Source: an uncultured Candidatus Saccharibacteria bacterium | Lineage (GTDB): Bacteria; Patescibacteriota; JAQUNI01 | Direction: 5' to 3' | DNA length: 64,000 nt | NCBI GenBank assembly: GCA_964555185.1 | Contig: CAZKRD010000001.1 | Location: 124,265 to 188,264, forward strand | In this document: piece by piece, positions 1 to 25,764 of the stretch | Numbering within the stretch: position 1 is the first letter of the stretch | Layout: each line of letters starts with the position of its first letter | Notes under the pieces: generated by a model | What the model was told of the DNA's origin: nothing | Seen by the model: only the letters and a program-made list of their open reading frames with translations | Database searches by the model: none | Translations under genes and position numbers: made by a program

Positions 1-313
1 TAGTCACCTCATAGATATCCATATAGAAAGCATCAAGATAGACTGTGTGCACAGGCAGTTCATCAGGATCTCCTCCTGAGAATGCATCGCCCAATGCATT
101 GCCCATCTCGAATTCACCCTGTGGGATTAACACCATTCCTTTCTGGCTACCGATATCTACCCCTTCTACCAATTCATCTTTTGGGTCCATGCCGCTCTGT
201 TTCTGTATATCAACGTTGCTGGTATTGCCGCCCGGCGTGGTTGGGTTGTCACTGCCACAGCTGATTATTAAAAAAGCCAACAACATAGTCAAAACTACTA
301 TTATCCTTTTCAT
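1..313 (-). CDS. N-terminal part (gene runs off the window start) of a lipoprotein with an FGE-sulfatase/SUMF1-type domain
   Basis: Reverse-strand translation from ATG at 313: MKRIIVVLTMLLAFLIISCGSDNPTT... (signal peptide plus lipobox ISCG), then LIPQGEFEMGN...DPDELPVHTVYLDAFYMDIYEVT. This matches the start of the formylglycine-generating-enzyme fold consensus (IP.G.F.MG...E.P.H.V.L..F.I...EVT). Confidence 0.6.
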   Translation of the reverse strand, partial: MKRIIVVLTMLLAFLIISCGSDNPTTPGGNTSNVDIQKQSGMDPKDELVEGVDIGSQKGMVLIPQGEFEMGNALGDAFSGGDPDELPVHTVYLDAFYMDIYEVT

Positions 314-407
314 CCAGATCACTCCTTTTCATTGCTATCAACTAGATTTTGCCATTCTGGAAACTCTTTTTCACTCTACAAGATAAACATTCAAAAGTCA
401 AGTAATG

Positions 408-565
408 TCATTGCGAGGAGCGACCAGAGGGAGCGACGCGGCAATCTCCAAACAGCAAGAATGAACCATTTTACTGGACAGAGATTGTCGCCAATACCGG
501 GTGACCACCCAAAGGGTGGCTTCGGTCATCTCTCGTCAAGCTCGGGTTTCCCTCGCAATCACAGA
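408..565. repeat. Family-A inverted-repeat miniature element (GTCATTGCGAGG...GCAATCTC / GAGATTG...CCTCGCAATCAC)
   Basis: Left arm 'gtcattgcgaggagcgaccagagggagcgacgcggcaatctc' and inverted right arm 'gagattgtcgcc...ccctcgcaatcac'. The same family flanks the GIY-YIG gene at 61654..62090. Confidence 0.6.
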
Positions 566-584
566 AAATAAAAAGCCAAAATGC

Positions 585-662
585 CTTTATCTAATTTGTC
601 AAAAAAGAATATTTTCTACCGCTTCCGGAAATTCATTTCCGCTATTTTGAAGGTTCTTTAAA
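585..662 (+). pseudogene. Truncated duplicate of the 5' end of the giant surface-protein gene (26 codons, then stop)
   Basis: MPLSNLSKKNIFYRFRKFISAILKVL* versus MPLSDLSKKNILYRFRKFISVLLLVGVF... at 2094. Same upstream sequence. Confidence 0.6.
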
Positions 663-750
663 ACTATCAATCCTTACATTTTGAAAAGTGAGGAATAAAA
701 AAAGCCCAAGAGAGCAAAGGTTAGGAAAAAATTGCTTTTGGGCTATTGGG

Positions 751-1827
751 CTACTTAATTTCATAATCAGCCAGGAGATAGAGGCGGGTTTTCCCGTCAT
801 CATATTCAGACTTGACAAATCCCACTCCATTTCCGAGCCAGACGCAAAAGTCGTGTCTTTTGAGCTTAATACATCTAAATGTACCCGCGGGTACAGTGAT
901 TTTTTCTGTGCCCATAAATTGGAAGTCATGATAAATTGGGTGACCATCATCCGGTCCGCTGGGAATGGACGCAGCTCGAATCAGGACGCCATTCCTATAC
1001 CCATAATATCTTGGTGCGTAACTGTTGTGATCTTCCCGATCCGACTTTTTGACCACAACATAGTAATCCTGACCTCCAAAGTTTAGGATTCGGGTAATAT
1101 TTTCGATGAAGGTTTCCCAAAGCCCACCGTCAACAAAGTGTTGTGTTTTCTTCCAATTACCTACACCAAGAGGAAAATAGATTTGCCAGTCAACATCCTC
1201 CATACATGTAGGTTCGTCGCTTGCTTCACTTTCGAGTTTGGGATCTGGATCTGTATGCTCCTGTCCACTTTGTTCTGTTGCATCTGTTGCTGAAGCGGGA
1301 TCGTCCAACCAAACTGCTTGGTCAATTTTCTCCTGCACTGGAATTTTAACATCATCATAAACTAGATATAATTTCCCTTGTTGATAATCTGGATTATAGG
1401 AGGTGAACAGGCCAACAGACGCGTTTTGCCCTGGTTCCAGGATAAGTTTCGGAGGGGCGCCGCCGCGCAGACTGGGCAGGTGGTAGGCTATCTGCCCGAA
1501 AGAAAATTTGTCAACCGTCGGATCAAGCATGACCATATCATTGTCGTGATGCACAAATGATCCCTTAATGTCCTGGAACGCGAAATCTGACTCATAGATC
1601 GTGATTGTATCTGACCTTCTATTGATTATCAGGACATAGAAGCATATATCCACTACAGGTATACCCAGAAAGCTTTCGCCATGCACAGACTCAACCTTCT
1701 CGATTTTTATCTCTACGCCACTTGTACTACTGCTTGCTGTTTCTGCCGGGTTTTCCTCACCGCAGCCAATGATTGTTAAAAAAAGAACTAACAACATAGT
1801 CAAAAATATCCTTTTCATCCAGATCAC
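751..1827 (-). CDS. Hypothetical lipoprotein (358 aa)
   Basis: Long ORF. N-terminus MKRIFLTMLLVLFLTIIGCGEENP has a signal peptide plus lipobox. Its 5' end and promoter region are duplicated at 270..340 (paralogous signal peptide of the FGE-like gene). Confidence 0.6.
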   Translation of the reverse strand: MIWMKRIFLTMLLVLFLTIIGCGEENPAETASSSTSGVEIKIEKVESVHGESFLGIPVVDICFYVLIINRRSDTITIYESDFAFQDIKGSFVHHDNDMVMLDPTVDKFSFGQIAYHLPSLRGGAPPKLILEPGQNASVGLFTSYNPDYQQGKLYLVYDDVKIPVQEKIDQAVWLDDPASATDATEQSGQEHTDPDPKLESEASDEPTCMEDVDWQIYFPLGVGNWKKTQHFVDGGLWETFIENITRILNFGGQDYYVVVKKSDREDHNSYAPRYYGYRNGVLIRAASIPSGPDDGHPIYHDFQFMGTEKITVPAGTFRCIKLKRHDFCVWLGNGVGFVKSEYDDGKTRLYLLADYEIK

Positions 1828-2172
1828 TCCTTTTCATTATTATCATTAGATTCAACAGATTCAACCTATCTATAAACTCATTTTCACTCTACAAGATAAA
1901 CATTCAAAAGTCAAGTAATGTCATTGCGAGGAGCGACCAGAGGGAGCGACGCGGCAATCTCCAAACAGCAAGAATGAACCATTTTACTGGACAGAGATTG
2001 TCGCCAATACCGGGTGACCACCCAAAGGGTGGCTTCGGTCATCTCTCGTCAAGCTCGGGTTTCCCTCGCAATCACAGAAAATAAAAAGCCAAAATGCCTT
2101 TATCTGATTTGTCAAAAAAGAATATTCTCTATCGCTTCCGGAAATTCATTTCCGTTCTTTTGTTAGTAGGTG
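1782..2172. repeat. Copy 2 of the tandem-duplicated cassette; contains the intact start of the giant gene
   Basis: See 270..662. Confidence 0.85.
1917..2074. repeat. Family-A IR miniature element (second copy)
   Basis: Identical to 408..565. Confidence 0.6.
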
Positions 2173-5100
2173 TTTTTGCTCTTTCTATTGGTTTTCATCC
2201 CTTGCAGGTTAGCGCAGATAGTGATGACGCAATAAATAAGCGCATTGAAGAGGGCGGGTCTATAGGGACTTCTAGTTTATTTCAAGATTTAGTTGTGGGT
2301 CCGATTAGTTCGTTCGGCTCTATGCTTCAGAATTTCAAATACGGCGATGTGATTAACCTTATTCTAAAAAACACCCTAAACAAGATTATTGATCGTTTCT
2401 ATGATAAGGTGATTAAAGAATTTGAGGATAAATATCGGGTTAAAGACACTCTAACCCAATGGTGGCTGCCTTATGTTAATGCTCGGTTTGATAAGTTTCA
2501 CGGCTGGGTAGGCGAGCAAGTGGGAGGCGGGATGGAAGGGCCTCTCTTAGAGGTGTTTTTAGCTTTAGAGAATACAGTCTATAAAGGGGTGGTGGATACG
2601 GGCCATTATTTAGAAAACAGGCTTTTTAAGACATTAGAGCTTCTTTTAAAAGGAACCGGCGCGATTGTCGCCAAGGAAGTCGGTATGCAGGTGGGTACTT
2701 CTAATTATTTTAATTATGGATTCAGGTCTTTGGGCACGGATGCTTTAACCATGTTTTGGAAGGGAGAGGCAAAGGTCTTAGAGATGACGCAAGAGGCAGA
2801 AAGAGACGCTTCTCTTGATTACCTTACTTCTGATGCTTTAACCAGAGGCGATCAGGTGATGAACCAGCCAGAGGGCGGATTAAATCTGGCTAAAGAGCGT
2901 GAGATCAGGAAAAATTCAAAATATAATTTTAAGGAAATAGAAGATCAGATGAGCGAATGGGCGTATGAAAACGCTGGCGTTGGCAACGATCCAGCGCGTA
3001 AATGCGCGTATGCTTTTGAGGACGGATCTGTTTATAGAGTTACTGTGGGTTCAGATAAGCTTGATGGCGGAGATTTTGGATACAGCCATGTTCCTAATGT
3101 TCAAGGACCGGGGCAATGGGACATATTTCCCTATTCAGAAAAATCAAACTGGAATGTTTTGCGAATTTGGTCTTTATTTGATGATGGTTTAGCTGATCTT
3201 GTTTATGATGAAAGCGGAAAATTCCAAAAGATATTTTATTATGGCAGTACTGGTGCCCCCCAAGAGGTTCAAAGTTATGCTATCTATAATAAAGCAGGTT
3301 TAATCAAAATCTGGTCTTGTCGTCTTAGCGGCCCAGCGCATATTAAATACAAAGATGCTGGCTTGATTGAGAATATTAATTATTACGCGGACCCTAAAGC
3401 TACCCCGCGTTCAATCACGACATTCTCTTTTTCTTCCCGTTCTGGCTCGGTAACGGGCTGGACTGGCCTGATCGAGCGTCCTGGCCAGGCAGTGAAAAAT
3501 TATTTACAGGAATTAATTAACAGTCGTTTTGAGCGGGCAAATGATGAGAGCTCTAGTTTAACCGGTTTGGGCAAGGTGATGTATGATTTGATGGACGGGT
3601 TCACGGACGCGATTCAATTTGAAACAATCATTGAAGAAAGAGAGGGCCACCCAATGTATGGCTGTCCGGTTGGTTTTGATACGAATATTGACGATCTCTG
3701 GCAGGAGATGCGGCCTTTTGGCGACAAAGAGAATCCTTCGAGTTTTGACTGTTTGATGCGGGCGGTTGGCCAGATTGGCTGGGACATCTTTCCGACTATT
3801 GCCAAATACATTGGCTGTTTAGCGGAAAAATTGCTTTGCTGGATTTTCAATATAGATTCCAAGAGCGCGGAATCGCAGACTGTTCAATATGATTATGAGA
3901 CAGAGGTTAAGGAAGAAGGAGAGTGGGGCGAGAACCGCGCTGTCGCTCTTGATGAAGCGGGAGAGCCAATCAAAAAGAGAAATACTGGCCGCTTTACGAC
4001 AGAGAGTTTTTTAAGGTTTGCTGCCCAATATTTGATTTATGTTAAGTTGATTAAGCCCCACATGCCGGATGTGAGCGGGCTCGCGGGTAGTTTTTGGGAG
4101 TGGGTTAAAAATCAAGATTGGTTCCCTGAGTGGGGTAAAAGTCTTGGTGATGCCTTAAGCACCATTCTTGAACTTGCTGATGATTTTCTTGAATCCTGGG
4201 CCTGGGGAAAGGTGATAGCCTTTGCTTTGAAATTGCTGGGATTTTGCGATGATCGGTGCGAGGACAGGGAAAGTACGCCTGTGCCCAAAAAGCCAAAGCT
4301 TAGTTGTGAAGAGATATGCCAGGAATATCCTGATTCGGTTGTTTATACGGGCAACCATTCTATTTGGCACGAAGATCCTAATAAATCCGGCACTTTTTTA
4401 CGAGACGCGATTGGCGCGGACGGAAAGGAACTGGGCCTCGAGGAAAACAAGAATGGCGCTTTAATGGCCGGGACAGATAACTATTTAGGTATTGAGATGT
4501 GTAATTGTACAGAGGATACAGCGGCTTTAGGCTGGAAGTTTTCTCTCCAGTCTGATCAGAAGGATTTTGAAAATAGTTTGGATCCTGAATACAGAGTAAC
4601 ATCTGACCCTAAAAATGAGGTCCTATTAGAAAATAGTACAATGATGGATGGGAGTACTTCTTCCTGCCAGCGGAACAATCACTGTTTGATTCCCCGTGTT
4701 GTTTCCGCGGATTCGAAAAAGGGCTGGCGAAAATTCAAAATTGAGGTGGGCGAAAAGGCAAGAACCCGCGAGGTTATTTTTTCTTTGGTTACGCATCAGA
4801 TGGCGAATTTACATGATGATCAGGGAATTTTTGAGAATATTTATTATCAAACCGTAAAAACAGACGATGAAGGAAGGGTTATTTTCAATACAAACACTAA
4901 ACTTCCTGAAATAGACTTCAAAAAGCTTGATGATCAAGAAATCAGCTTCACTCTTCCAGTTAGAACAGAGACCCTTTTCGATATTATGGCTCCGCTATAT
5001 GACAGCGATGATGAGAACAAAGGAGACCTGCCTCTTCAGAAAATTTACAGAACTGATTTAGATGAACCGCCAGTCCTTGTCTCTTATGGGCCTGATACTG

Positions 5101-8024
5101 ACTTTTACCGGCCAGGCGCGGATTATACCTGGCAGTTATATTTGCGTAATAAAATCCAAGGCGCGGCTTGGGGCAATTTACCATCGCCGCAGGCAGAGGT
5201 TGATTCTGCCTCTCAAAGGGTTTTGCAGTCTAGTCCGAGTCCGAGTCCGACTCCTACTCCTGATACCCTCCCCAGCTGTACACTTTCTGCTAATCCTTCA
5301 AGACCAGAACCTGATCATATTGTGAATTTTTCAGCTAGAGTGACGGATGAAAACAATCATATCACTGATTGGATATTTGATTATGACGATGGCGCGTGGA
5401 CAAGTGGCGAGGGCAGTCCCGGGGCCGAGGCATCCTTTAGCCATACTTACACTGTGCCGGGAGGCAGTTATACTCCTGCCTTAATACTCAATCTTGATAC
5501 TGGTCCGGGTACGGTTGGTTGTATTACAGCAGTTGATGTTATTGGCCATGGCGCCGAATACGATAGCTTATATGGCAAATTAGAAGCAGTGCCCTACGGT
5601 ACAGAGAGTCAGGAAATGATTGATCGCTGTGTTCAGGGGATTAGCGTGGAGGATGCTCCTTTTCCAGATGATTATCCTGACAGGATTATGTTTATGCATA
5701 TGGGCAGGTATCAGCCTTCCGGCGCCGCTAATGCTATGATGCATGAAATCAGAGCTTATCAAGAAGAATGGCTAGAGAATTATAGGTATGAACATCCGCC
5801 AACAATGGCGCAGTATATGTTTAAGGCTAATTTAAAACTCAACGCGTTAGGACCGAATGTTGCTTTCCCGGGTATGCGCGATGAAATTTTTGAGGAGCTT
5901 GACACCGAATTTGGATATGGACCCACAGAAAATGTAATGAAGACCCAAGAATGGAAAGACTCTGTATATCAAGCATGGGAAGAAACCCTTACGGTTTATA
6001 GGATAACAGCAGGCGGCAGTCTGACCCCGATTACCAGGGACGAATTTGACTATATTCTTTCGATGATGACTGGCGATGTGGCTATGGGAGTGGTAACGGG
6101 CATTGGCCTTTTTCGCCCCAACATTGGTCAGGCCCTAGGGGCGATTCAGCTGCTTGGAAGGGGCTTAAAGTGGGTAATAAATAAGGTTGGAGGGGATTCT
6201 ACGAGCAGGCTTAGTTCGGAAATAGGAAAGGCCGGCCCTAGACAGCAAGTTTTAGATTTTGATCACAGTCAAAACCTTAATATTAACACGCATCGGGGCA
6301 AGTTTAAGATTGAGCTTAAGAACGATGACGATGAATTCTGCAACGGTAAGGTTATTCCTTTTATGCTTTATTTGTATAAAAATAAAGAGAAACGCCCGAT
6401 CAGCGCTCTTCCCTATAACTGGCTAATCGGCGAGCCGGAAGAGCCGACCCCAACTCCGACCCCATCCCCATCCCCAACTCCATCCCCATCCCCAACTCCG
6501 ACCCCATCCCCAACCCCTCCAAGCAATCCACTTGAGTTTGTGAAGTGTGAGGTTTATAAGGACGAGTGCCATCCTGACCGTGCATTAGAAGGTATTTGCA
6601 CAAATAATAATGGCATGATTGAGCCGGCAGAGACAGTTACTCTCAAGGTATATCTTAAAAATAAAACTGGAGGGTTTATAGAAAGCGAGGTGACTTTTAC
6701 TTCTATGAATCTCCCTAGTGAAGTTTGCGTGGGCATTTCACCTGGTGATGGCTCTTGTCCTGGCTTTTTGAACCAAACTTATTATCTTGACGGCGGCGCG
6801 ATTTTTGGTCATCGCTATCCATTTGCTGTTTCGAAATATTATAGCAAATCCTACTTGACTTTTCGTTTGCTCGGTGATATTGAAGGCAGCGGCGGCCAGC
6901 GCGCGATTGATGAGCAATTTATTGTAAATTTATATAGATCAGACAATGTCTGTGTATGGGGCCCTGATCCATCGCCAACACCGACGCCAACACCGACGCC
7001 AACCCCTCCTTCAGGGTACCCTGATTTAGTCGTGAAGCCTGGCGAGGAGTTTGGGTATAGGATGAAAAATGACAAAGATGGCAGTGGCGGAGTAACTGTT
7101 GGCGACGAAGTTGAGGTGTGGTTTAGGGTTACAAATCAAGGAACAGAGGATATGGACTCAGGAGATAAATGGGATATAAAACTGTATTCGCGTTATGGCA
7201 GTGGTAATTTTGATCATTTTAGGACATATACGGACCAGAGTCCGCTTGATGCTCCTAGCGGGAGCAGCTGGGATACTGTAGTAGTTTATTACTTCCCTAT
7301 TTTCGAGATCAGAGAGTCAAAAGATGTTTGTTTTGCCTTAAAAATAGATTCTGGTGATGATGTTGACGAGGGTTCTAGTGGAGAGAGAAATAATGAACCT
7401 GGCTTTAGCTCGCCTTATTACTGCATTCCGGTAGGCAGTACTCCGACTCCGACTCCTCCGGAGGTGAAGAAGGATGCTAAGATGAAAGAGGTGAACCTTG
7501 ATTCCGTAAAGGAGTCATCTCAAGGGGGTTCCTACACCTTTGATGCCGACTATACAATTGTCAATAATAGCCAGCCTCCGGATACGGCGATCGGCGGCGG
7601 AAGTGATGACTTTTACCGCAAGCCTACTTTAATGAAAGTGGATATTGGTAGAAAAGCCAGTGATTATAGTAAGACTGGGTGCTTCAAAGAGCTTGAGAAG
7701 CTTACTAATTATTCGAATAATAATAGAATAACGCGTTTGGATGAAAACGGCGATACCCAGTTTGTAAACTTTAATGATCAAGTTTATGGGCCTTGGGAAA
7801 GTGCTAGTTACCAAGTGAAGGCCGAGGTGTGGCACAAGTATGATGGAGATGATGATACCAGTAATAATATTTTATGTTCTGATCCGTTGAATATTTATAT
7901 AGGACCGTTACCGGCAGCCAATCCAGACAGTGAGCAGTCTATTGCCGGCGTAGCTCAAGAATTAACTTTAAGACAAAGAATCAAGCGGGTGTGGGATTAT
8001 GTTATAGACAAAGTCAAAAGATAA
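2094..8024 (+). CDS. Giant secreted or surface protein (1976 aa) with Pro-Thr/Pro-Ser linkers and PKD-like/CARDB-like segments
   Basis: Uninterrupted 5.9 kb ORF with an N-terminal hydrophobic anchor (ISVLLLVGVFALSIGF). Low-complexity linkers PSPSPTPTP, PTPTPSPSPTPSPSPTPTPSPTP, PSPTPTPTPTP. A PKD-like stretch (VNFSARVTDENNHITDWIFDYDDGAWTSGEG...SFSHTYTVPGGSYTPALILN) and a CARDB-like stretch (PDLVVKPGE...GDEVEVWFRVTNQGTEDM). Confidence 0.8.
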   Translation: MPLSDLSKKNILYRFRKFISVLLLVGVFALSIGFHPLQVSADSDDAINKRIEEGGSIGTSSLFQDLVVGPISSFGSMLQNFKYGDVINLILKNTLNKIIDRFYDKVIKEFEDKYRVKDTLTQWWLPYVNARFDKFHGWVGEQVGGGMEGPLLEVFLALENTVYKGVVDTGHYLENRLFKTLELLLKGTGAIVAKEVGMQVGTSNYFNYGFRSLGTDALTMFWKGEAKVLEMTQEAERDASLDYLTSDALTRGDQVMNQPEGGLNLAKEREIRKNSKYNFKEIEDQMSEWAYENAGVGNDPARKCAYAFEDGSVYRVTVGSDKLDGGDFGYSHVPNVQGPGQWDIFPYSEKSNWNVLRIWSLFDDGLADLVYDESGKFQKIFYYGSTGAPQEVQSYAIYNKAGLIKIWSCRLSGPAHIKYKDAGLIENINYYADPKATPRSITTFSFSSRSGSVTGWTGLIERPGQAVKNYLQELINSRFERANDESSSLTGLGKVMYDLMDGFTDAIQFETIIEEREGHPMYGCPVGFDTNIDDLWQEMRPFGDKENPSSFDCLMRAVGQIGWDIFPTIAKYIGCLAEKLLCWIFNIDSKSAESQTVQYDYETEVKEEGEWGENRAVALDEAGEPIKKRNTGRFTTESFLRFAAQYLIYVKLIKPHMPDVSGLAGSFWEWVKNQDWFPEWGKSLGDALSTILELADDFLESWAWGKVIAFALKLLGFCDDRCEDRESTPVPKKPKLSCEEICQEYPDSVVYTGNHSIWHEDPNKSGTFLRDAIGADGKELGLEENKNGALMAGTDNYLGIEMCNCTEDTAALGWKFSLQSDQKDFENSLDPEYRVTSDPKNEVLLENSTMMDGSTSSCQRNNHCLIPRVVSADSKKGWRKFKIEVGEKARTREVIFSLVTHQMANLHDDQGIFENIYYQTVKTDDEGRVIFNTNTKLPEIDFKKLDDQEISFTLPVRTETLFDIMAPLYDSDDENKGDLPLQKIYRTDLDEPPVLVSYGPDTDFYRPGADYTWQLYLRNKIQGAAWGNLPSPQAEVDSASQRVLQSSPSPSPTPTPDTLPSCTLSANPSRPEPDHIVNFSARVTDENNHITDWIFDYDDGAWTSGEGSPGAEASFSHTYTVPGGSYTPALILNLDTGPGTVGCITAVDVIGHGAEYDSLYGKLEAVPYGTESQEMIDRCVQGISVEDAPFPDDYPDRIMFMHMGRYQPSGAANAMMHEIRAYQEEWLENYRYEHPPTMAQYMFKANLKLNALGPNVAFPGMRDEIFEELDTEFGYGPTENVMKTQEWKDSVYQAWEETLTVYRITAGGSLTPITRDEFDYILSMMTGDVAMGVVTGIGLFRPNIGQALGAIQLLGRGLKWVINKVGGDSTSRLSSEIGKAGPRQQVLDFDHSQNLNINTHRGKFKIELKNDDDEFCNGKVIPFMLYLYKNKEKRPISALPYNWLIGEPEEPTPTPTPSPSPTPSPSPTPTPSPTPPSNPLEFVKCEVYKDECHPDRALEGICTNNNGMIEPAETVTLKVYLKNKTGGFIESEVTFTSMNLPSEVCVGISPGDGSCPGFLNQTYYLDGGAIFGHRYPFAVSKYYSKSYLTFRLLGDIEGSGGQRAIDEQFIVNLYRSDNVCVWGPDPSPTPTPTPTPTPPSGYPDLVVKPGEEFGYRMKNDKDGSGGVTVGDEVEVWFRVTNQGTEDMDSGDKWDIKLYSRYGSGNFDHFRTYTDQSPLDAPSGSSWDTVVVYYFPIFEIRESKDVCFALKIDSGDDVDEGSSGERNNEPGFSSPYYCIPVGSTPTPTPPEVKKDAKMKEVNLDSVKESSQGGSYTFDADYTIVNNSQPPDTAIGGGSDDFYRKPTLMKVDIGRKASDYSKTGCFKELEKLTNYSNNNRITRLDENGDTQFVNFNDQVYGPWESASYQVKAEVWHKYDGDDDTSNNILCSDPLNIYIGPLPAANPDSEQSIAGVAQELTLRQRIKRVWDYVIDKVKR

Positions 8025-8258: not shown

Positions 8259-8806
8259 ATGCAAGGAAAGTTATGTCGTCGTCGTTCCATTAGATTGCCA
8301 GCATATAATTATTCTCAAGCCGGATATTATTTTGTGACGATTTGCACCCAGAATTTTTGGTGTTGTTTGGGAGAAGTTATTGCTGGGGAGATGAAACTAT
8401 CCGAAGCAGGGCATATGATTGATCAGAAATGGCAGGGATTAAAGAATAAATTTAAAAACATCAGGTTAGATCGATATCAGATTATGCCAAATCATTTCCA
8501 TGGGATTATTGTCATTACCCGTACAAAAATCGTCCCAGACTAGGTGATATTATTGGTGCATTTAAATCGATAACAACCTATAGATATATCCAAAATGTCA
8601 AAAGTAAAAACTGGCCTCGGTTTCACAAGCGTTTCTGGCAGCGCAACTATTACGAACACATCATCAAAACCGAAGAGTCCCTAAACCAATTCCGTGAATA
8701 TATTAAGAAGAACCCAGTACATTGGGAGAGTGACAGGAATAATCCTGATAATGTTAAGGTGAAATATTCCGCAAAAATTAAAACACAATGCGTAAAAATA
8801 AGTTAA
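8259..8806 (+). pseudogene. REP-associated tyrosine transposase (RAYT / IS200-IS605 TnpA family), frameshifted
   Basis: Part 1 (8259..8543): RRRSIRLPAYNYSQAGYYFVTICT...QIMPNHFHGIIVI (HxH motif). Part 2 is in another frame to 8806: RLGDIIGAFKSITTYRYIQ...RFWQRNYYEHIIKTEESL..YIKKNPVHWESD (catalytic Tyr region). The frames switch at the A5 run 8525-8529; six A's would restore one ORF of about 185 aa. Confidence 0.7.
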
Positions 8807-11800
8807 AAATATTTGCTCTGCTCGCTTTTATCCTGATCGGCGTGTTTTGGGGTGTGGGAAGGGTCGCGAAGGTTCAGGCGGAGAATCTGGTGGAGTGCAA
8901 ACGGAAAGCCTCTGTAGCAGCAACAGCATCATATTGGACAAAGGGTGATGTAAAGTGTGATTTAGATCAGAATCAGATTTGTGCCTACTATTCGGAATGG
9001 GGTAGCTTGGGATGGTATCCTAAAGAGATATGTAAAAAATTAGTTGAGGCCCGACATTGCTTAGGAGAAGACCCTGACTGTAATACAGATTTTGAAGGCG
9101 CTTTATTTGGAGGCGATGTAGAGAATGTTAAAATGAGAGAAGGGATTGAAACTGTGCCAGCTTATTATATGAGTGATAAGGATTATAAAATTGGCTGTCA
9201 GCAAGGGTTTTCGCCTGCTTCAACTGGCGATCATGAGAGGGCAATAGGTGTTGGTTTGGGGAGGAGGTCTGCTGAAATCTATCAATGCTTAGAGGAAACC
9301 GACCCCGGGGTTTATCAGGATGCTTGCGGCGATGGCAGAGGCGTACATAAAGAAGGGGATCAAATCATACCCACGGCTTGTGTAAGCTCTGATAAGCAAT
9401 GCGTGCCTCAGACCAAAGACGGACAATATGTATTCTTCGCGATTGCTAATAGAACGCTAACGCGCGAACAGGAATGGGTTGATGTTGGTAATCCATCGAG
9501 AGTCGTTATAAAACCAGGAAGCAAGGCTTATTGTTATGATACTTATCAAGAGATAGATTCTGCTAATTGTTATTTAGAAGCAGATAAAGACTTAATAGAT
9601 AAAGATTCTCCTGGCAGAAAGATTACCCCTAGCATAAACGCTGTTTATGGCGCAATAGTTGGTCAGAACGTTAAAGAATATTTTAGGCCGCATTATGAAT
9701 GTGAAGAAGGGGGCAGTGCATTTTGGCAGATATTCAACAGCACAATCGGCGTAGCATTGACCACGATTTTTGGCCTTATTGCCTCGGTTATTATTTTTAT
9801 TCTTGGCGCTGTGTTTTGGCTCGTTACCGCTTTTTTGGAATGGGTAATGGGGATTAGTAAGATAGAGGTAGGGATTATTGATATTGTTTGGGAGTTTTTG
9901 CGTGATTTTTCCAATATGTTCTTTATTATCATCCTGCTCTATATTGCTTTCTGTACGGTTTTGCGCATCCAGAGCCAGAATATTAAAAAAGCCCTGCCCT
10001 GGTTTATGTTTTCTGTCATCCTGATCAATTTTTCTCAAGTGATTTGTCAGATAGTGCTTGATTTTTCCCAGATTTTGATTGACGGCATTTATTACTTAAT
10101 GCCCGGGAACTGGTGGGGGCGGGTAAATTTTGTTTTGCATGCCGGGGGCATGGATGAATGGATGAATGTCAGGACTGTTTTTGGCAGTAGAAAGTTAAAT
10201 GATTTTGTCGGCGTAATCGGGGCGCAGGGTTTGAGTATTCTTTATATGGTGGCGTCCGTGATTGTTTTTGGCGCGACTGCTTTTCTTTTGGCAATCCGGA
10301 TTGTGGTTTTGTGGATTATGACCGCGATTTCGCCGCTTATTTATGTCGCGATGGCTGTTGGCAACAAGGGCATTGTCAAAAAGTACTGGATCAGTTTCTT
10401 GCGCACAGCCTTTTTCGCGCCAGTAATGATTTTTTGTATTGTCATCTCCATTGTTATTTTAAGCTATGATTTGGATGATTATTTAAAGTCAGAAGTGGGT
10501 ACAGTAGAACAGGTTTTAAGTGAAGAAGCAACTCAAGGAAATATTGTCACCGAAGCCGGCTCATTCCAGAATTTTATCCAACTGATTTTCGCCCTTGCTT
10601 TTATGTGTACTGGGCTTGTTGTCGCGCGCAAAGGCAGTGTGATCGGCGCTGACGGGGTAGTTAAAGGGGCGATGAAGCTTGGCAAGATGACTGCGCCCTG
10701 GATCACGGGTGTTAAACCGGCTGGCCATGGCGTGAAAGCGCTGGCTGGCTATGGCTGGCGTCAGGCCTTGAAGAGCCGGGCCGGGAAATATTTGAAGGTT
10801 GTCAGTCCCACGGTTTGGAAAAGAGCAACCAAGGCGCGCCGCGAGCGCGTGATGGAAGAAACTTTTGTCCCGCGCGCTGCCGAACTACAGCCAAGGCTCG
10901 CCGGCTGGCATGCTTTTTGGCACGGCGGCGGTCCTGCCTATGAGATGGAGAAGAAGAGAGCGGATAGTGCTAAAAGGAAATTAGCCAAAGATGAAGGCGA
11001 TAGGTTGACTCAGACTGATGAGCCATCAGAGTCTTTTATTGGCGTAATGAAAGTAGCCTTAGATCAAGCTAAGGAGCGGGGTGATCTTGGTTCGATTCGT
11101 GCGCTAACCCCTCTTGTTGAAGGAGCGCTCCGCACGGCGGGAATAGCGCGCGGCGACTGGAATGATGTCTTAAAGAGTAAATTTCTTAAAGAATCGGGAT
11201 ATGGCATTCAAAGAGCGACAACCGGCGCTGATGTTAGGATGTTTAAACAGCTTTTCGGCGATGACCCAGAGGCAATTCAAGTTTTAAACAGTTTGGCCGA
11301 GTCTTCCAAATCCAAATACACCCACCTTGCTTACGCTACCTATTTTGATGAAGAACAAGGCAAGCTGATCTATGGTATTGATAGAAAGGCGACAAGGTCG
11401 GAGATGAAAAGTGAGTTAGAAAAGTTAAATAAAAGAAGATTGAAAGCAGGCGAACAGGAGATGGAATTTGATGATTTCTATGAAGAGATTATTGAAAACT
11501 TAGGACAGGTTGACTCAACTGTTCGAGAAAATAAGCGGCTTCAGCAATTAGGTATGGCCGATGAGGTAGCCAATATAATCAAATTCTATAATAATGACCG
11601 CTCTAAAACAATTCTGGGTGAATTGGCGAAGAAAAGCCCTAAGGATAAATGGACAGTTAATCCAGGCGCGTTTGCCGCGGAAATCGGTGGGGGCTACACA
11701 GACCCTGAGACTGGTGAGTGGCATAAATATTATGGCGAGACAGCTTCAACAGAAGCCTATGTTGAAAGTGCAACCATGGCCGACGCAACAAGAATCGACA

Positions 11801-12159
11801 GCTGGGCTCCTCCGCGCATGCGCAAGGCCATTCTTGGTAATGAAAAAATGGTGAATAAAGTTCTTGAAGGGATAGAAACAAAGAGAAGAAAGGAGAAAAA
11901 AGATGAACTTGAGCAAGCAAAGGCTGTAGGTAACAGAGAAGAAGTAGAGAGAATTGAAAATTATATTACGGAACAAAGAGTAGTTTGGAACGCATTGTAT
12001 AGGAAGCTTAAGATAAAAGAGAAAACTGTTGTTGATGGAACCAAAAAGCAAACTGTTGTTGATGGAACCGAGGACGAGACAACAAGAACAGAGGAAGACG
12101 AAGCAGATGCTGCTGAAGATGCAGCTGCAGCTGCTGAAGAGGAAACAGAAGGAACTTAA
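8788..12159 (+). CDS. VirB6/TrbL-like polytopic membrane protein with Cys-rich N-terminal ectodomain and a ~400-aa C-terminal module (1123 aa)
   Basis: Signal/TM (IFALLAFILIGVFWGV), a Cys-rich region, then 6-8 predicted TM helices at aa 300-620 (IGVALTTIFGLIASVIIFILGAVFWLV..., ILYMVASVIVFGATAFLLAIRIVVLWIMTAISPLIYVAMAV...). It lies immediately upstream of the VirB3-like/VirB4 genes. The C-terminal part (nt ~10944..12156) is paralogous to 13434..14618. Confidence 0.5.
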   Translation: MRKNKLKIFALLAFILIGVFWGVGRVAKVQAENLVECKRKASVAATASYWTKGDVKCDLDQNQICAYYSEWGSLGWYPKEICKKLVEARHCLGEDPDCNTDFEGALFGGDVENVKMREGIETVPAYYMSDKDYKIGCQQGFSPASTGDHERAIGVGLGRRSAEIYQCLEETDPGVYQDACGDGRGVHKEGDQIIPTACVSSDKQCVPQTKDGQYVFFAIANRTLTREQEWVDVGNPSRVVIKPGSKAYCYDTYQEIDSANCYLEADKDLIDKDSPGRKITPSINAVYGAIVGQNVKEYFRPHYECEEGGSAFWQIFNSTIGVALTTIFGLIASVIIFILGAVFWLVTAFLEWVMGISKIEVGIIDIVWEFLRDFSNMFFIIILLYIAFCTVLRIQSQNIKKALPWFMFSVILINFSQVICQIVLDFSQILIDGIYYLMPGNWWGRVNFVLHAGGMDEWMNVRTVFGSRKLNDFVGVIGAQGLSILYMVASVIVFGATAFLLAIRIVVLWIMTAISPLIYVAMAVGNKGIVKKYWISFLRTAFFAPVMIFCIVISIVILSYDLDDYLKSEVGTVEQVLSEEATQGNIVTEAGSFQNFIQLIFALAFMCTGLVVARKGSVIGADGVVKGAMKLGKMTAPWITGVKPAGHGVKALAGYGWRQALKSRAGKYLKVVSPTVWKRATKARRERVMEETFVPRAAELQPRLAGWHAFWHGGGPAYEMEKKRADSAKRKLAKDEGDRLTQTDEPSESFIGVMKVALDQAKERGDLGSIRALTPLVEGALRTAGIARGDWNDVLKSKFLKESGYGIQRATTGADVRMFKQLFGDDPEAIQVLNSLAESSKSKYTHLAYATYFDEEQGKLIYGIDRKATRSEMKSELEKLNKRRLKAGEQEMEFDDFYEEIIENLGQVDSTVRENKRLQQLGMADEVANIIKFYNNDRSKTILGELAKKSPKDKWTVNPGAFAAEIGGGYTDPETGEWHKYYGETASTEAYVESATMADATRIDSWAPPRMRKAILGNEKMVNKVLEGIETKRRKEKKDELEQAKAVGNREEVERIENYITEQRVVWNALYRKLKIKEKTVVDGTKKQTVVDGTEDETTRTEEDEADAAEDAAAAAEEETEGT

Positions 12160-12186
12160 AAATTTAAGACAAATATAATTTGATCC

Positions 12187-13374
12187 ATGGATCAGGATTT
12201 AAATAATTTAAAAGTACAAGATTTAAGCCGGCAAGAGGTAGTGAACAAGATTCAAGCCAAGGTTAGTTTTATTATCCGCTTTGCTGACGATGATCAGGCT
12301 TGGCCTCTTTCTTTGGCTTTAAGGAGGATTCGCAAACAGAAGGATAAGGCCTTAACCCCCGAGCTTTTAGAGCGGCTAAAGCTGTGGTCAGTTTTAGTGG
12401 ATTATGTTTGTTTTCCGGCGCAAACCGAAGAGAGGACAATCGAAATCTTCCGAGATCATATGAAGGAAGTGTTGAGTTTGGAGCGGGACACGGTTATGGG
12501 CGGTTTGGAAAGCAAGCTGTGGGCTGATCCTGCCGGCCCTCGCGAGGAGCTGGGCGTCAAGCTGATTGGGGCTTTGAAGGCAAACAGGCAAAAGCTTGGA
12601 GATTTGACCTTGGGCGAATGGATTGCCACTTTTATCCATAGTTACCCCAATGTTCCTAATCTGGCTGATTTTGAAGAACGGAATTTTTTGAACAAAAACA
12701 AACAAGCGCGCGCTCTTGACCCCAAAGGCAGAGAGATTCTAGCTAAGCTTTTAAAGGTTTATGATCTCTTGCGTCCTTTAGAGGCGGGCAATTATTATTT
12801 CCAAGCGCTGGCGCAAGGCAAAGACTTGTTCGTCGAAGAAGAAAAGCAGGTAAGACTGGGTCGGGCCTTAGGCAGGACAGCGCGGCTCCAAGACGGTAGA
12901 GCTGGAGTGCGGAGTTTTCAGGATATTCGGACCCAGGGCAAGAGTCCGCGCGTTCCTCCCAGGGCGCCGCGGGGAGTGGGACAAGGAAGCAGGCCCGTTC
13001 CGCTCGGGCAAGGCCAAGGCCAAGTCTCCCCAAGGGCGGCGACTACCCAAGGGATTAATCCGCCGCCAAGGGTTCCAGTTTTGCCCCCTGATTTTAAGAT
13101 TAAGCCCCGGCTGGAAATCGAAAAACCAACCAAGCCTTCTTTTCAAAATCAAATATCTCCTAAATCCGAGCAGGTTCCGAGTCCTTCAAGCCAAGTTGAA
13201 CCAGAAACCCCTCGGGAAGCGGGCGCTTTGACTGTTGGCGAGCTGGAGAGAGCGGCCCAGAGAGGCGATCCGGTCGAAGAAGAGAGGCTGCGGAAAATGA
13301 TCCGTCAGGGTTTTAACAAGCTCTCGCCAGAAGCGCGCCAATATGTTAGCAACAGTCCCTTTTGGGCAGAGTAG
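12187..13374 (+). CDS. Hypothetical protein with Pro/Gly/Gln-rich low-complexity region
   Basis: 395-aa ORF, no recognisable motif. Contains PRVPPRAPRGVGQGSRPVPLGQGQGQVSPR. Confidence 0.55.
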   Translation: MDQDLNNLKVQDLSRQEVVNKIQAKVSFIIRFADDDQAWPLSLALRRIRKQKDKALTPELLERLKLWSVLVDYVCFPAQTEERTIEIFRDHMKEVLSLERDTVMGGLESKLWADPAGPREELGVKLIGALKANRQKLGDLTLGEWIATFIHSYPNVPNLADFEERNFLNKNKQARALDPKGREILAKLLKVYDLLRPLEAGNYYFQALAQGKDLFVEEEKQVRLGRALGRTARLQDGRAGVRSFQDIRTQGKSPRVPPRAPRGVGQGSRPVPLGQGQGQVSPRAATTQGINPPPRVPVLPPDFKIKPRLEIEKPTKPSFQNQISPKSEQVPSPSSQVEPETPREAGALTVGELERAAQRGDPVEEERLRKMIRQGFNKLSPEARQYVSNSPFWAE

Positions 13375-14621
13375 TATTTATTTTAAAATTTCAAATGAGA
13401 AGAGAAAATTCAGGAAAAAATTTTGCTTATGGAATGGAACGGAAAAGAGCAGATGTTTCTAAAAGGCAGTTAGCAAAAAATGAAGCCAAAACACTGCTAG
13501 AATCAGATGAACCAACCGAGTCTATTGTTTATATTTTAAAACAGGAATTAGAACGGCTTGAAAAGAAAGGGCTTCTTGGCACAGACCAAGCTTTAACCCC
13601 TTTAGCAGAGGGAGCAATGCGTGCAGCGGCTTCCCGCGGGGATTGGAATAATGTTTTGAGAAGCGATCTTCTAAAAAGATACGACTATGGTACTCAAAAG
13701 GCAAGTACGGGCGCTGATGTTAGGATGTTTAAGAAACTTTTTGGCGATAGTTCAGAAGCAATTCAGGTTTTAAACAGTTTAGCTGAATCCTCTAAAGCCG
13801 AGTACACCCATTTGGCTTATGCCACTTATTATGATGGAGAAGAGAGTAGGTTAAAATACAGCATAGATAGAAAAGAATACTTAGATTCAATGGAAGAGCA
13901 AAGGGTGAAAATGAATAAAAAGAGAAGAAAAGCTGGACAAGAGGAGATTTCAAGGGATGATTTTTATAATCTAGTTATTGATAATTTAGGAGAAGTGGAC
14001 GCGGAGATTAGACAGAAGAATGAGTTAAAGAAGGAAAATGTTGCTGAAGGAATAGCTGAAGTGATTAAGCTTTATAATAAAGATCGGGGTGATGCGATTA
14101 TGGCTGAATTGGCAAAAAAGGATCCTAAAGCTAAATGGAAGGTTAACCCGGGCGTATTTGCCGCGGAAATTGGCGGCGGTTATTGGGAGTTGAATCCCGA
14201 AACAGGCAAAGAGGAATATGTTGCTAAATACTATGGCGAAACAGCATCATCTCGGGCTTATATTGAGAGCGCGACCACGGCGGACGCGGAAAGAATAGAC
14301 AGTTGGGCTTCTCCGCGCATGCGCAGAGCTATTCTTGATAATAGGAAAATGGTGAATAACATCCTTGAAAGAATAGAAAACGAGAAAAGAGAGGAAGCTA
14401 AGAAAGCAAGGATTTCGGGAAATGCAGAAGAAGTAAGGAGACTTGAAGACTATGCTAACAAAAAGAGGGTAATTTGGAATCGTATATATGAAAAACTTGA
14501 GATATCACAAAGCAAGGACGGTAATGCTGGTACTGGTTTCATCGATAGAGAGGGAAAAGCTCAAGTTGTGGCTGAAGATGATGAGGCCGCAGTAGCCAAA
14601 GAAGAAACAGGGGGGACTTAA
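13362..14621 (+). CDS. Stand-alone paralog of the C-terminal module of the VirB6-like protein
   Basis: MERKRADVSKRQLAKNE...STGADVRMFKKLFGDSSEAIQVLNSLAESSKAEYTHLAYATYYD...KWKVNPGVFAAEIGGGY...DSWASPRMRRAIL...EETGGT versus MEKKRADSAKRKLAKDE...TGADVRMFKQLFGDDPEAIQVLNSLAESSKSKYTHLAYATYFD...DSWAPPRMRKAIL...EETEGT. Nucleotide identity is high in blocks. The true start may be ATG 13434. Confidence 0.7.
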   Translation: MGRVVFILKFQMRRENSGKNFAYGMERKRADVSKRQLAKNEAKTLLESDEPTESIVYILKQELERLEKKGLLGTDQALTPLAEGAMRAAASRGDWNNVLRSDLLKRYDYGTQKASTGADVRMFKKLFGDSSEAIQVLNSLAESSKAEYTHLAYATYYDGEESRLKYSIDRKEYLDSMEEQRVKMNKKRRKAGQEEISRDDFYNLVIDNLGEVDAEIRQKNELKKENVAEGIAEVIKLYNKDRGDAIMAELAKKDPKAKWKVNPGVFAAEIGGGYWELNPETGKEEYVAKYYGETASSRAYIESATTADAERIDSWASPRMRRAILDNRKMVNNILERIENEKREEAKKARISGNAEEVRRLEDYANKKRVIWNRIYEKLEISQSKDGNAGTGFIDREGKAQVVAEDDEAAVAKEETGGT

Positions 14622-14632
14622 AAAATAATGGT

Positions 14633-15772
14633 ATGACTAATTTTTCTAAGAAAATTCTTCCAATTGCCGCTTCTCAAGAAACAGCGTCAAAGTTAGCTCA
14701 GATTGCTGAACGTTTTTCATTATCCCGCGAACAGCGGAATCTTCAGGCGCGGATTTTGAGTAAGCTTTTGACCGCGGAAATCGGCCCGGAAGACTTGGCG
14801 CGCGTTTTAAGGATTAATCTTAATTTGAATGAGCAAAAAGCCAATACTCTTGCGCGCGCCATCCAGAAAGAGGTATTGGCGGGTTTAGATACCGGCGGCG
14901 GTTCTAAAAGGAGAAAGAAAATAAGAAAAAATAGGCAAAGACCGAAAAAGACAAGACCGGAGAAAAAGGGAAAATCAGAGCAGGCAAAGTTTAGCGCTCA
15001 AGAATTAAGAGCATGGTTTGATCGTCTTGTCAGGGATTTCAATTTGAATTTATCAGAGCTTCAGACCTCTCGTTTAGAGAGCGCGGCTTTGACCTATCTC
15101 AAAGATGTCCGTGATGAGATCGAAACCGAAAATGTTTTGTACCGCTCCCAGAACGAAGGAGGAGTTGGTTTGGCTGTTCCAGAGGCCGTAAAGATTACCC
15201 GCCGTCTAATAGAAGACTTCCCGGAAGAGGAGAAAAACGGGATCCGCAAGTCTTTCCATCCCAGAAGATCCGCAAGAGAAAGGGAAAAGCCGCCAGAGAA
15301 GCCCTTCCCGCCAGAAAGTCTCCGAGCAACTCAACCAATCGAGAGACCAAAAGCTATCGCGCCAGAGGGAGCCCGCCTAATCTCTGATGTGATTGGAGCG
15401 CCGCCTCGCCTTTCCCAGAGACCAAAACAGAAAAAGAGGGGCTTGTCTATTTCTGATTTAAGCCAGATTGCTCAACTAAAAGATTTGAGCATTGAGGCCT
15501 TTAAGAGAAAGCGGGCCGCGCAAGTCGTCAGCGAATTTCAGAATAAAATTAACGCCCTGGTGGGCAAAGATGAAGCGAAAAGAATGCAGAGCATTGAGGC
15601 TTGGCGCCAGTGCGAACCTTATCAGCTATACATTATGATCGGCGAAGAAAGCATTGGCCAGGGCAAGACCGTAGCCGAAGTAGCCCGCGAGAGAGCAAGA
15701 CAGAACAAGCCTTATTTAACCGAGGAGGAATTCAATGCGGTCGCGGATGTGAGCCGCGAGTTTCAATACTAA
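14633..15772 (+). CDS. Hypothetical soluble basic protein (379 aa)
   Basis: ORF tightly packed after 13362..14621 (11-bp gap). Lys/Arg-rich tract GGGSKRRKKIRKNRQRPKKTRPEKKGK. No TM. Confidence 0.55.
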   Translation: MTNFSKKILPIAASQETASKLAQIAERFSLSREQRNLQARILSKLLTAEIGPEDLARVLRINLNLNEQKANTLARAIQKEVLAGLDTGGGSKRRKKIRKNRQRPKKTRPEKKGKSEQAKFSAQELRAWFDRLVRDFNLNLSELQTSRLESAALTYLKDVRDEIETENVLYRSQNEGGVGLAVPEAVKITRRLIEDFPEEEKNGIRKSFHPRRSAREREKPPEKPFPPESLRATQPIERPKAIAPEGARLISDVIGAPPRLSQRPKQKKRGLSISDLSQIAQLKDLSIEAFKRKRAAQVVSEFQNKINALVGKDEAKRMQSIEAWRQCEPYQLYIMIGEESIGQGKTVAEVARERARQNKPYLTEEEFNAVADVSREFQY

Positions 15773-15788
15773 TTTTGATACTAAAATT

Positions 15789-16205
15789 ATGCAAGCAGTC
15801 GTACCCCAATTTATTGAAGTTGAAGACAGAATCATTGGCCCTTTAACCTTAAAACAGTTTCTTTATTTTTTAGCAGCCGGCGGCATAGAGCTTGTCTATT
15901 GGTTTTTCTTTGATTTTTCTTTATTTATTTTAATCAGTATTCCGACCGTAGCGATCGCCTTCGCCTTCGCCTTCTTTAAGATTAACGATCGGCCTTTTAT
16001 CTATTTTGTTTTAGCGGTCATTGGGTTTTATCTAAAACCAGTGGTCAGGGTTTGGCATCGCCGCGGCAGTAAATTAACGGCGCGGGATATTATTGCTGTT
16101 TCTTTCCTTGAAGAAACTGAAGGTGTGGGGCACAAGGATTTGCTTAAAGCGCATATGAAGCGGGGACGGCTAGCCCACATCGAGAAAGCGCTTGAAACAG
16201 CGTAG
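15789..16205 (+). CDS. Small two-TM membrane protein, VirB3/PrgI-like by position and topology
   Basis: 138 aa with a hydrophobic hairpin (FLYFLAAGGIELVYWFFF...ILISIPTVAIAFAFAFF...FVLAVIGFYL). It lies directly upstream of the VirB4 N-domain ORF, as virB3 does in T4SS loci. Confidence 0.4.
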   Translation: MQAVVPQFIEVEDRIIGPLTLKQFLYFLAAGGIELVYWFFFDFSLFILISIPTVAIAFAFAFFKINDRPFIYFVLAVIGFYLKPVVRVWHRRGSKLTARDIIAVSFLEETEGVGHKDLLKAHMKRGRLAHIEKALETA

Positions 16206-16334
16206 AGTTTAGTTTAAAATTCAAAATGCAAAGTTAAAAGTTGCAATTAGAAGTTTAAAGTTATGGAAAATAAGGAGTTGAAAGGACAGCTAGTTAGGTT
16301 CCTATATCTATCGCTACTTTAATAAATTTGATAA

Positions 16335-16395
16335 AGAAAAGAAAACTTTAAATTTTGGATTCAATTTTGAACTTTGAACTTTGAACTTTTAACTA
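16335..16395. repeat. Family-B 8-bp periodic repeat upstream of the VirB4 N-domain ORF
   Basis: 'ttcaattttgaactttgaactttgaacttttaact'. Confidence 0.65.
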
Positions 16396-16402
16396 TATAC
16401 CT

Positions 16403-17155
16403 ATGCCCCCCAAACAAAAACCTAAAAATAAAACTAATCCCAAGGAGAATAAGAAGTCCAAAGGCCGTTTTTTCAGTCTCCATTCCAAAAAGCTGACCGC
16501 GGGCAAGCCCAAGAAAACCACCCAGCAATTTTTGGATATTGTTGGGATCAGGGATAATACAGTGGTGCTTCGCGACGGCACTCTGCGCGCGATTATCATG
16601 GTTTCCAGTATGAATTTTTCTTTGAAGGGCCAAGAAGAGCAGAACTCCATTATCTATAGTTATCAAAGTCTTTTGAATGCTCTGAATTTTCCTATCCAGT
16701 TTGTGATTCAGTCTCGAGAATTGAATATTGAGTCCTATCTTAAAAATTTGGAAGAGCTAGAAGCAAAGCAAACGAATGAGCTTTTAAGGATTCAGACCAT
16801 AGAATACCGCGAGTACGTGAGCGAACTTGTTGAGTGGGGCCAGATTATGCGCAAACGTTTTTACATAGTCGTATCCTATGCTTTGGTGGAAGCCAAGGAA
16901 GAAAGTATGCTGTCCAAATTCAGAGCGATTGTGCGGCCGGCGGAGATTGTGCGGCAAAAGGAAAAAGACTTCTTAAGATACAAAAGTCTTTTGGATCAGA
17001 GAGTGGCGCGTATGGACGGTCTCCTAAATTCAATCGGCTTAAAGAGCGTACGTTTGAATACACAGGAATTAATTGAGCTGTTCTATAACGTCTACAATCC
17101 GTTTGTTTCTAGAACTCAGCCCTTAGCTGATGTTAAGAAACTTAATATTGTCTAG
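16403..17155 (+). CDS. VirB4/TraE-family N-terminal domain encoded as a separate ORF
   Basis: QFLDIVGIRDNTVVLRDGTLRAIIMVSSMNFSLKGQEEQNSIIYSYQSLLNALNFPIQFVIQS...RFYIVVSY matches the pattern of the extreme N-terminus of Gram-positive-type VirB4 proteins. Same frame as 17177..19117, separated by TAG (17153-5) and TAA (17159-61). Confidence 0.5.
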   Translation: MPPKQKPKNKTNPKENKKSKGRFFSLHSKKLTAGKPKKTTQQFLDIVGIRDNTVVLRDGTLRAIIMVSSMNFSLKGQEEQNSIIYSYQSLLNALNFPIQFVIQSRELNIESYLKNLEELEAKQTNELLRIQTIEYREYVSELVEWGQIMRKRFYIVVSYALVEAKEESMLSKFRAIVRPAEIVRQKEKDFLRYKSLLDQRVARMDGLLNSIGLKSVRLNTQELIELFYNVYNPFVSRTQPLADVKKLNIV

Positions 17156-17176
17156 CCCTAAATCAGAAATAAATCA

Positions 17177-22084: not shown

Positions 22085-22215
22085 TTGTACTTCAACTTTT
22101 AACTTGTATTTTTGCCTGCCCGCCGAAGCCTTGGCGTAGACGGGCCTGCCCACAACGCTTCACTTGCGAGGCGGGTGGGAGATTTAACTTTTAACTTTGC
22201 ACTTTTAACTTTTAA
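22085..22215. repeat. Family-B repeat (GC hairpin plus AACTTTTAACTTT periodic tract) between the Cys-rich pilin-like gene and the PD40 gene
   Basis: 'acttcaacttttaacttg...gcctgcccgccgaagccttggcgtagacgggcctgccc...gcgaggcgggtgggagatttaacttttaactttgcacttttaacttttaacttttc'. Confidence 0.7.
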
Positions 22216-25641: not shown

Positions 25642-25764
25642 GTCATTGCGAGGGAGCCCGCCCTTCAGGGCGAGGCGACCGAAGCAATCTCGTGAAACTA
25701 GATATTACTGCTTGACTTGACGAGATTGCTTCGTCATTCGCTTCACTCATTCCTCGCAATGACA
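25642..25764. repeat. Family-A IR miniature element without cargo
   Basis: 'gtcattgcgagggagcccgcccttcagggcgaggcgaccgaagcaatctc' ... inverted 'gagattgcttcgtcattcgcttcactcattcctcgcaatgacat'. Confidence 0.6.

Follow-up and report, generated by a model that had tools for sequence, protein, structure and literature searches.

Two lipoprotein genes with shared flanking modules

We analyzed a 64,000-nt stretch of DNA (the window; contig CAZKRD010000001.1, positions 124,265 to 188,264, assembly GCA_964555185.1) from an uncultured Candidatus Saccharibacteria bacterium, whose source sample was deep-sea sediment of Loki's Castle; papers on this site mention the accession SDBT01. At the left end of the window lie two lipoprotein genes and, transcribed divergently from them, a giant gene; each lipoprotein gene is preceded by a sigma-70-like promoter, an inverted-repeat (IR) element and a copy of the giant-gene start (Table 1). 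The lipoprotein gene next to the giant gene (unit A) is classed as DUF3108-like, based on a weak match at the C-terminus of its product, and the gene distal to the giant gene (unit B) is of the FGE-sulfatase type. The full FGE gene extends upstream of the window and encodes 318 aa, as read from L001 (11506–12462), an independent assembly of the same strain consisting of a 707-kb ENA scaffold that reaches 9.2 kb upstream of the window. The full FGE protein gave GldK/EgtB-like matches in NCBIfam. The two mature lipoproteins are not similar to each other.

Two direct copies of about 390 bp each were found by repeat search and MAFFT alignment, at 254–644 (copy B) and 1765–2157 (copy A), with a start-to-start spacing of 1505–1513 bp. 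This self-comparison had been proposed in the first-pass annotation, which placed two near-identical units of ~390 bp at 270–662 and 1782–2172; the units were confirmed and their limits refined. The longest exact match between the copies is 225 nt (368–592 = 1881–2105). Identity differed markedly between segments, with 58/63 in codons 1–21 of the giant gene, 207/207 across the giant-gene 5' untranslated region (UTR), the IR element and the promoter, 25/34 plus indels (~26% differing) in the 5'-UTR spacer (1841–1880 in unit A), 30/32 from the ribosome-binding site (RBS) to codon 4, and 18/19 plus a 6-nt indel in the N-terminal half of the signal peptide. In the C-terminal half, the hydrophobic region, similarity was weak yet significant (reached by 2 of 2000 shuffles); in the mature N-terminal linker and beyond it, DNA similarity was not significant (372 and 1944 of 2000 shuffles, respectively). 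The only tandem repeat of the 5' region is a 9-nt unit present twice in the unit-A spacer. The leader motif (AAAGGAGTGATCYGGATGAAAAG), 27 nt long and including the Shine-Dalgarno (SD) sequence and start codon, has exactly two occurrences in the 64-kb window, where the expected number is 0.

The two genes also have a 3' module in common (683–766 versus L001 12467–12548, 93–100% identical), which consists of the last six codons of the DUF3108-like gene, a hairpin resembling an intrinsic terminator and a T7 run. In unit B this module sits past the stop codon of the FGE gene itself, and the identical part of the terminator module is only ~56 nt long. The 5' and 3' modules recur in the same order and orientation, head to tail, with a period of 1413–1513 bp. 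Hence, the earlier observation that two unrelated lipoprotein bodies carry the same promoter and signal-peptide module is upheld, and extends to the RBS and the terminator module.

Table 1. Features of the lipoprotein locus and copies of the IR family, in window coordinates. ORF, open reading frame; MITE, miniature inverted-repeat transposable element; REP, repetitive extragenic palindrome; T4SS, type IV secretion system.
Feature	Position	Strand	Remarks
FGE-sulfatase-type lipoprotein gene, unit B, 5' 104 codons	1..313	-	translation; PF03781 E=3.6e-7 on fragment
5' module of unit B: SD GGAG 322-325, ATG 311-313, signal peptide MKRIIVVLTMLLAFLIISCG	254..335	-	
Diverged 5'-UTR spacer, unit B	336..367	-	~74% identical to unit A, with indel
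225-nt identical stretch	368..592 = 1881..2105	.	contains promoter, IR element, giant-gene 5' UTR and first 4 codons
Sigma-70-like promoter, unit B (TTGACT, 17 nt, TAGAGT)	373..401	-	conserved in L003
IR element, copy B	406..563	.	MITE/REP-like structured element, 158 nt
Giant-gene start stub, 26-aa ORF	581..661	+	giant-gene homology stops at ~644
Novel duplication joint	645..682	.	terminator-downstream sequence fused to giant-gene codon ~22
3' module of unit A: last 6 codons (DYEIK, stop), terminator-like hairpin 703-744, T-run 696-702	683..766	-	
DUF3108-like lipoprotein gene, unit A, 355 aa	751..1818	-	ortholog of related species' single lipoprotein gene
5' module of unit A: SD, ATG 1816-1818, signal peptide MKRIFLTMLLVLFLTIIGCG	1765..1840	-	
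Sigma-70-like promoter, unit A	1886..1914	-	
IR element, copy A	1919..2076	.	
Giant gene, 1976 aa, signal-anchor N-terminus	2094..8024	+	T4SS-like cluster follows
Family A IR copies	406-563, 1919-2076, 25642-25775, 31855-32010, 54338-54385, 61654-62089		

A single lipoprotein gene in a related lineage

The DUF3108-like lipoprotein had a single homolog among 5.8 billion proteins (P0002, 47% identity), found on contigs from two JGI samples, L003 and L004; the comparison below rests on this one related lineage, reached via the lipoprotein homolog. The gene order on both contigs is the same as here and runs giant gene, lipoprotein gene, a 485-aa TSP3-repeat gene, PMT, Ham1, HhH-GPD, methyltransferase, radical SAM and RrnaAD. 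The giant gene is 60% identical, and both contigs have one lipoprotein gene only, which is DUF3108-like. The shared gene order around one such gene argues that a single DUF3108-like lipoprotein gene was the ancestral state.

In L003 the promoter, the RBS, the start of the signal peptide and the start of the giant gene are conserved, and thus the high identity of copies A and B in the promoter, RBS and giant-gene start partly reflects selection. L003 also carries an IR element of the same family at the same position, with a different interior, so that the element predates the duplication. The IR interior cannot be aligned between the two species, and selection therefore does not account for its identity between A and B. 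A three-way count of sites gave four states in which A and B agree and differ from L003 within the N-terminal half of the signal peptide; from about codon 13 onward A is close to L003 (43/48) and B is not (26/48).

Wider searches returned nothing further: the leader motif had no match in 185,579 species genomes (one per GTDB species), and no relatives of the giant protein were found in the GTDB species genomes or in the JGI metagenome contig collection that was scanned; the lineage is absent from both collections. A protein search with the giant N-terminus returned nothing, which is probably due to a limit in candidate selection, as the giant protein itself is on record.

A duplication joint and a probable gene-body replacement

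The 3' flank of unit B aligns with the corresponding flank in L003, and the unit-A terminator runs into the novel joint and then into the giant-gene stub. The stub had been recognized before as a truncated giant-gene start (585..662); it is a dead ORF, as was proposed. The tandem duplication is likewise genuine, as is evident from the head-to-tail modules, the joint and the single-copy relative. The microhomology AAAAGAAC was considered as the crossover point and rejected, being present in both parental sequences, with both copies surviving at the joint.

The FGE reading frame ends in CAKDTKP and a stop codon, past which the sequence continues in frame with S, TDYEIK and a further stop. The last codons match those of the DUF3108-like gene (ADYEIK and stop; VDYDVK and stop in L003), and hence the flanks of unit B derive from a DUF3108-like gene. 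Judged from this match, the TDYEIK stretch is an unused remnant of the DUF3108-like C-terminus. FGE homologs of similar length are lipoproteins themselves; their linkers are short and their native C-termini similar (GFRC...P), and this makes it plausible that the donor was a complete lipoprotein gene, which probably recombined within or just past the signal-peptide region. An FGE paralog was found neither in the window nor in L003. A foreign composition of the FGE body was considered and rejected, the GC content being 0.44–0.48 versus 0.42–0.48 in the neighbouring gene.

Taken together, we consider it likely that a real tandem segmental duplication was followed by replacement of a gene body, in the course of ordinary genome evolution and without a dedicated exchange system. 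The order of events and the recombination mechanism that we infer are as follows. The locus would have started as one DUF3108-like lipoprotein gene with its terminator and flank, reading away from the giant gene, with the promoter and the IR element between the two genes. A segment of ~1.51 kb, with one end just beyond the terminator and the other at codon ~22 of the giant gene, which is transcribed divergently, would have been duplicated head to tail, leaving a dead stub of 26 giant-gene codons where the copies meet. In the copy farther from the giant gene (B, which keeps the old flank), the sequence between roughly the signal-peptide end and the sixth-last codon would then have been replaced by the coding sequence of an FGE-sulfatase-type lipoprotein with its own stop codon, probably via short-homology or illegitimate recombination in the lipoprotein signal-peptide region. 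The outcome would be a pair of unrelated lipoproteins whose genes carry separate copies of one promoter, SD sequence, signal peptide and terminator, and the two genes are thus presumably co-regulated.

Several observations weigh against this history. Identity between the copies is very uneven, with 0/225 differences in the core versus ~26% in the spacer next to it and 8% in the segment of the giant-gene start, and a single recent duplication leaves this pattern unexplained unless gene conversion or an assembly effect is added. At the joint, ~20–35 nt of 645–682 cannot be confidently assigned, and there is no clean microhomology. No close FGE donor gene was found, the best homolog being at most 63% identical. 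The relative represents a single outgroup lineage, and it is possible that the duplication predates the species split and was followed by loss in L003.

Uneven identity and the two assemblies

The window and L001 are 99.9% identical over 11.8 kb, and the duplication is present in both assemblies. All 10 differences between them within these 11.8 kb fall in the IR interior, at 455–489 and 1968–2002 (L001 11330–11364 and 9817–9851), and consist of the same five changes mirrored in both IR copies. One of the five turns a G-C pair of the stem into a G-U pair, and the L001 variant agrees with the related IR copy at 31855–32010 at three of the five sites. The identical core may result from gene conversion that keeps the copies alike within each strain; alternatively, the copies may truly differ at the five sites, each assembler having collapsed the bubble and written one variant into both places. 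Contig L006, from an NCBI metagenome, joins the FGE unit to the L001-type variant and ends at the variable stretch; this linkage fits assembler collapse, although it is no proof of it. If collapse were the true cause, the identity of the core would be ~98% and very recent conversion would be unnecessary. Without reads, perfect identity of a repeat core in a metagenome assembly should not be taken as a sign of recent conversion.

Alternative explanations

It is unlikely that the duplication is an artefact of assembly, and we regard the specific forms that such an error could take, namely a single unit traversed twice or two distant loci joined through the shared repeat, as extremely improbable. 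The identical 225-nt core exceeds typical k-mers, and the Logan and NCBI short contigs (L002, L006, L007 and L009) break exactly where the repeats become identical; the mirrored differences between the window and L001, all within the IR, resemble bubble collapse as well. However, the two copies differ in the spacer, the signal peptide, the stub (5/63) and the 3' edges, so they are two distinct sequences, and the short contigs carry copy-specific bases. In addition, the ~56 nt of identical terminator sequence are short enough for single reads to link the DUF3108-like gene to the joint and the FGE gene to the old flank, which forces the order giant gene, A, B, flank, and the two long assemblies agree. 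Accepting the duplication as real, one could still hold the IR element responsible for it, either through transposition or recombination at its ends or through independent insertions upstream of two lipoprotein genes. The element belongs to a multi-copy family in this genome, one copy of which encloses a GIY-YIG nuclease ORF, and it sits in the core without any difference between the copies; the first-pass annotation, too, had put forward recombination at the IR element as a mechanism. The breakpoints are found elsewhere, ~82 nt past the IR (644/2157, at giant-gene codon ~22) and just past the lipoprotein terminator (~645–682). Identity continues beyond the IR for 38 nt on the promoter side and 29 nt on the giant-gene side and is followed by diverged homology, no duplication breakpoint lies at an IR end, and an IR of the same family occupies the same site in the single-copy relative. 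The breakpoint positions already contradict a causal role, which we consider very unlikely. With breakpoints away from its ends, homology past both of them and the element already in place in the single-copy relative, the IR is a passenger inside the unit and not the recombination site.

A further possibility is a programmed locus for cassette exchange and surface variation, in which the 5' and 3' homologies would act like the upstream and downstream homology sequences (UHS/DHS) of relapsing-fever Borrelia and the bodies would be swapped by gene conversion. Unrelated bodies do lie between near-identical 5' and 3' modules, the replacement of the body is in frame, and the same five changes in both IR copies between assemblies could reflect ongoing conversion. 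Against this stands the number of units. Arrays of lipoprotein genes had been predicted, and a check for further copies upstream suggested, yet there are only two units: neither the leader, the IR nor the terminator recurs in the 9.2 kb of L001 upstream of the window, and the leader and the terminator do not recur in the remaining 62 kb of the window. A silent archive is lacking, as each of the two units has a promoter. No recombinase domain was found among the genes called within ~10 kb, and the same two bodies occur in the same arrangement in the two same-strain assemblies and in the Logan and NCBI contigs. The absence of the leader motif from the GTDB species genomes also counts against an exchange system. 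The surface-variation mechanism suggested for this locus is therefore not supported by what we found, and we judge programmed exchange to be very unlikely. By analogy, the 5' (RBS/signal peptide) and 3' (last codons/terminator) blocks could be recombination handles for swapping or adding lipoprotein bodies beside the giant gene and the T4SS-like cluster, an idea to which we give little credence; if it were true, a logic like that of the Borrelia UHS/DHS would operate in a distant lineage, and the mirrored IR changes would represent ongoing conversion. Tandem duplication with subsequent body replacement reveals no new mechanism: a resident gene unit is duplicated and its body is then swapped.

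The IR element family

The more unusual object at this locus is the repeat family inside the duplicated unit. Members of the family (family A; Table 1) consist of box1 (GTCATTGCGAGG), a variable GC hairpin, box2 (GCAATCTC) and an interior, followed by the complements of box2 and box1. Copy B has a predicted fold of -67 kcal/mol (z=-4.67). The copy at 61654–62089 encloses a 101-aa GIY-YIG nuclease ORF (61721–62026; PF01541, E=2e-14). Shorter copies resemble derivatives without cargo, and the one at 406 retains a short remnant that resembles the start of this ORF. The end motif formed by box1 and box2 is very widespread in environmental metagenomes, with at least 120 loci (L010–L129). Among the matches listed, 3 of 120 loci encode a protein ~55% identical to the GIY-YIG protein of the window, and in two of these three metagenomic cases the GIY-YIG ORF is nested between inverted boxes (L033 2955–3413 and L034 6499–6929). 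In L034, copies of box1 are clustered and alternate, like arrays of bacterial interspersed mosaic elements (BIMEs).

Judging from this organization, family A looks like a REP/MITE-like family with a GIY-YIG partner. In common with REP/BIME or MITE families, the element is intergenic, short and multi-copy and folds strongly; its terminal inverted boxes are conserved, its interior varies, and rare longer copies contain a nuclease ORF. Unlike in REP and MITE families, the enclosed ORF encodes a 101-aa GIY-YIG protein and not a RAYT/HUH or DDE transposase. We know of no transposition activity for the GIY-YIG protein of this family, and no target-site duplication was seen in the IR flanks inspected. 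Rfam did not match the IR, whether the whole window was searched at gathering thresholds or 330–700 at relaxed ones. A literature search found nothing that describes an IR/GIY-YIG element, and an exact-protein look-up for Logan unitigs found nothing for a 43-aa ORF inside the IR.

An invertible promoter was considered and rejected, as the only strong inverted repeats are the IR arms, which do not flank the promoter. An imperfect inverted repeat at 1777–1794/2154–2176 (12 nt at 92% and 17 nt at 76%) pairs signal-peptide codons of the DUF3108-like gene with signal-peptide codons of the giant gene on the other strand, near the two edges of the duplicated 5' module. T-rich Leu/Val codons on the two strands probably account for it.

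Giant-gene neighbourhood and other features

The region past the giant gene (8788–19117) encodes a 1123-aa protein and several proteins of 380–420 aa without a Pfam family. DNA repeats with 73–78% identity in this region (11149–11387 versus 13635–13873, and 11724–11894 versus 14225–14395) suggest paralogous neighbouring genes. A PrgI-family protein (15789–16205) and a VirB4/TraG-type ATPase (17177–19117) are encoded next. By their predicted products, the genes at 8788–19117 appear to constitute a T4SS-like cluster beside a giant surface protein, with the lipoprotein genes at the edge of the cluster.

Three genes with a prepilin-type N-terminal methylation motif (GFTLVELLVVIAIIG; 47968–48033, 48559–48624 and 52623–52688) lie in a run of small ORFs and are probably part of a cluster for type IV pili or pseudopilins. 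A further short repeat family (TTCAACTTTTAACTT...GCCTGCCCGCCGAAGCCTTGGCGTAG) is represented by two copies that are 88% identical (22091–22139 and 59482–59530), and a 45-nt tandem pair with a hairpin (GGGGTCCCCGCAAAATCGAAGTTTTTGTGGGG) is located at 42485–42574, upstream of the gene at 42562.

Resemblance to other systems

In the vsp/vlp system of Borrelia hermsii, antigenic variation makes use of upstream and downstream homology sequences, with a single expression site and promoterless archived copies. The present locus resembles it in having a conserved stretch of RBS, start and signal peptide and a conserved 3' stretch around different lipoprotein bodies. In contrast to Borrelia hermsii, there are two genes only, both with promoters, and no promoterless archive; moreover, the bodies come from unrelated families and show no variation between assemblies.

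Lipoprotein clusters of Mycoplasma (M. bovis vsp, M. hyorhinis vlp and M. pulmonis vsa) have near-identical 5' UTR and signal-peptide sequences and divergent mature parts, and in this respect the two neighbouring genes with near-identical 5' regions and divergent mature parts are alike. They differ from these clusters in the lack of a site-specific recombinase, of recombination sites and of a homopolymer tract in the promoter, and in their number of only two; unlike in the Mycoplasma clusters, no internal tandem repeats were found in either lipoprotein body. An integron cassette array differs as well, since the neighbourhood of the present genes has no integrase and the units end within coding sequences.

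General bacterial genome evolution includes tandem segmental duplication followed by gene conversion and replacement of the body (promoter/leader capture). The locus has the features of an ordinary duplication of this kind: the units lie head to tail, they meet at a novel joint with a truncated neighbour gene, a relative has a single copy, and identity is patchy. What sets it apart is the unusual tidiness of the replacement, in which the promoter, RBS, signal peptide and terminator were kept and an unrelated, complete lipoprotein body was placed in frame between them. As such, the locus offers a clean and datable case in which a new coding body would have been given a ready-made promoter, RBS, lipoprotein signal peptide and terminator.

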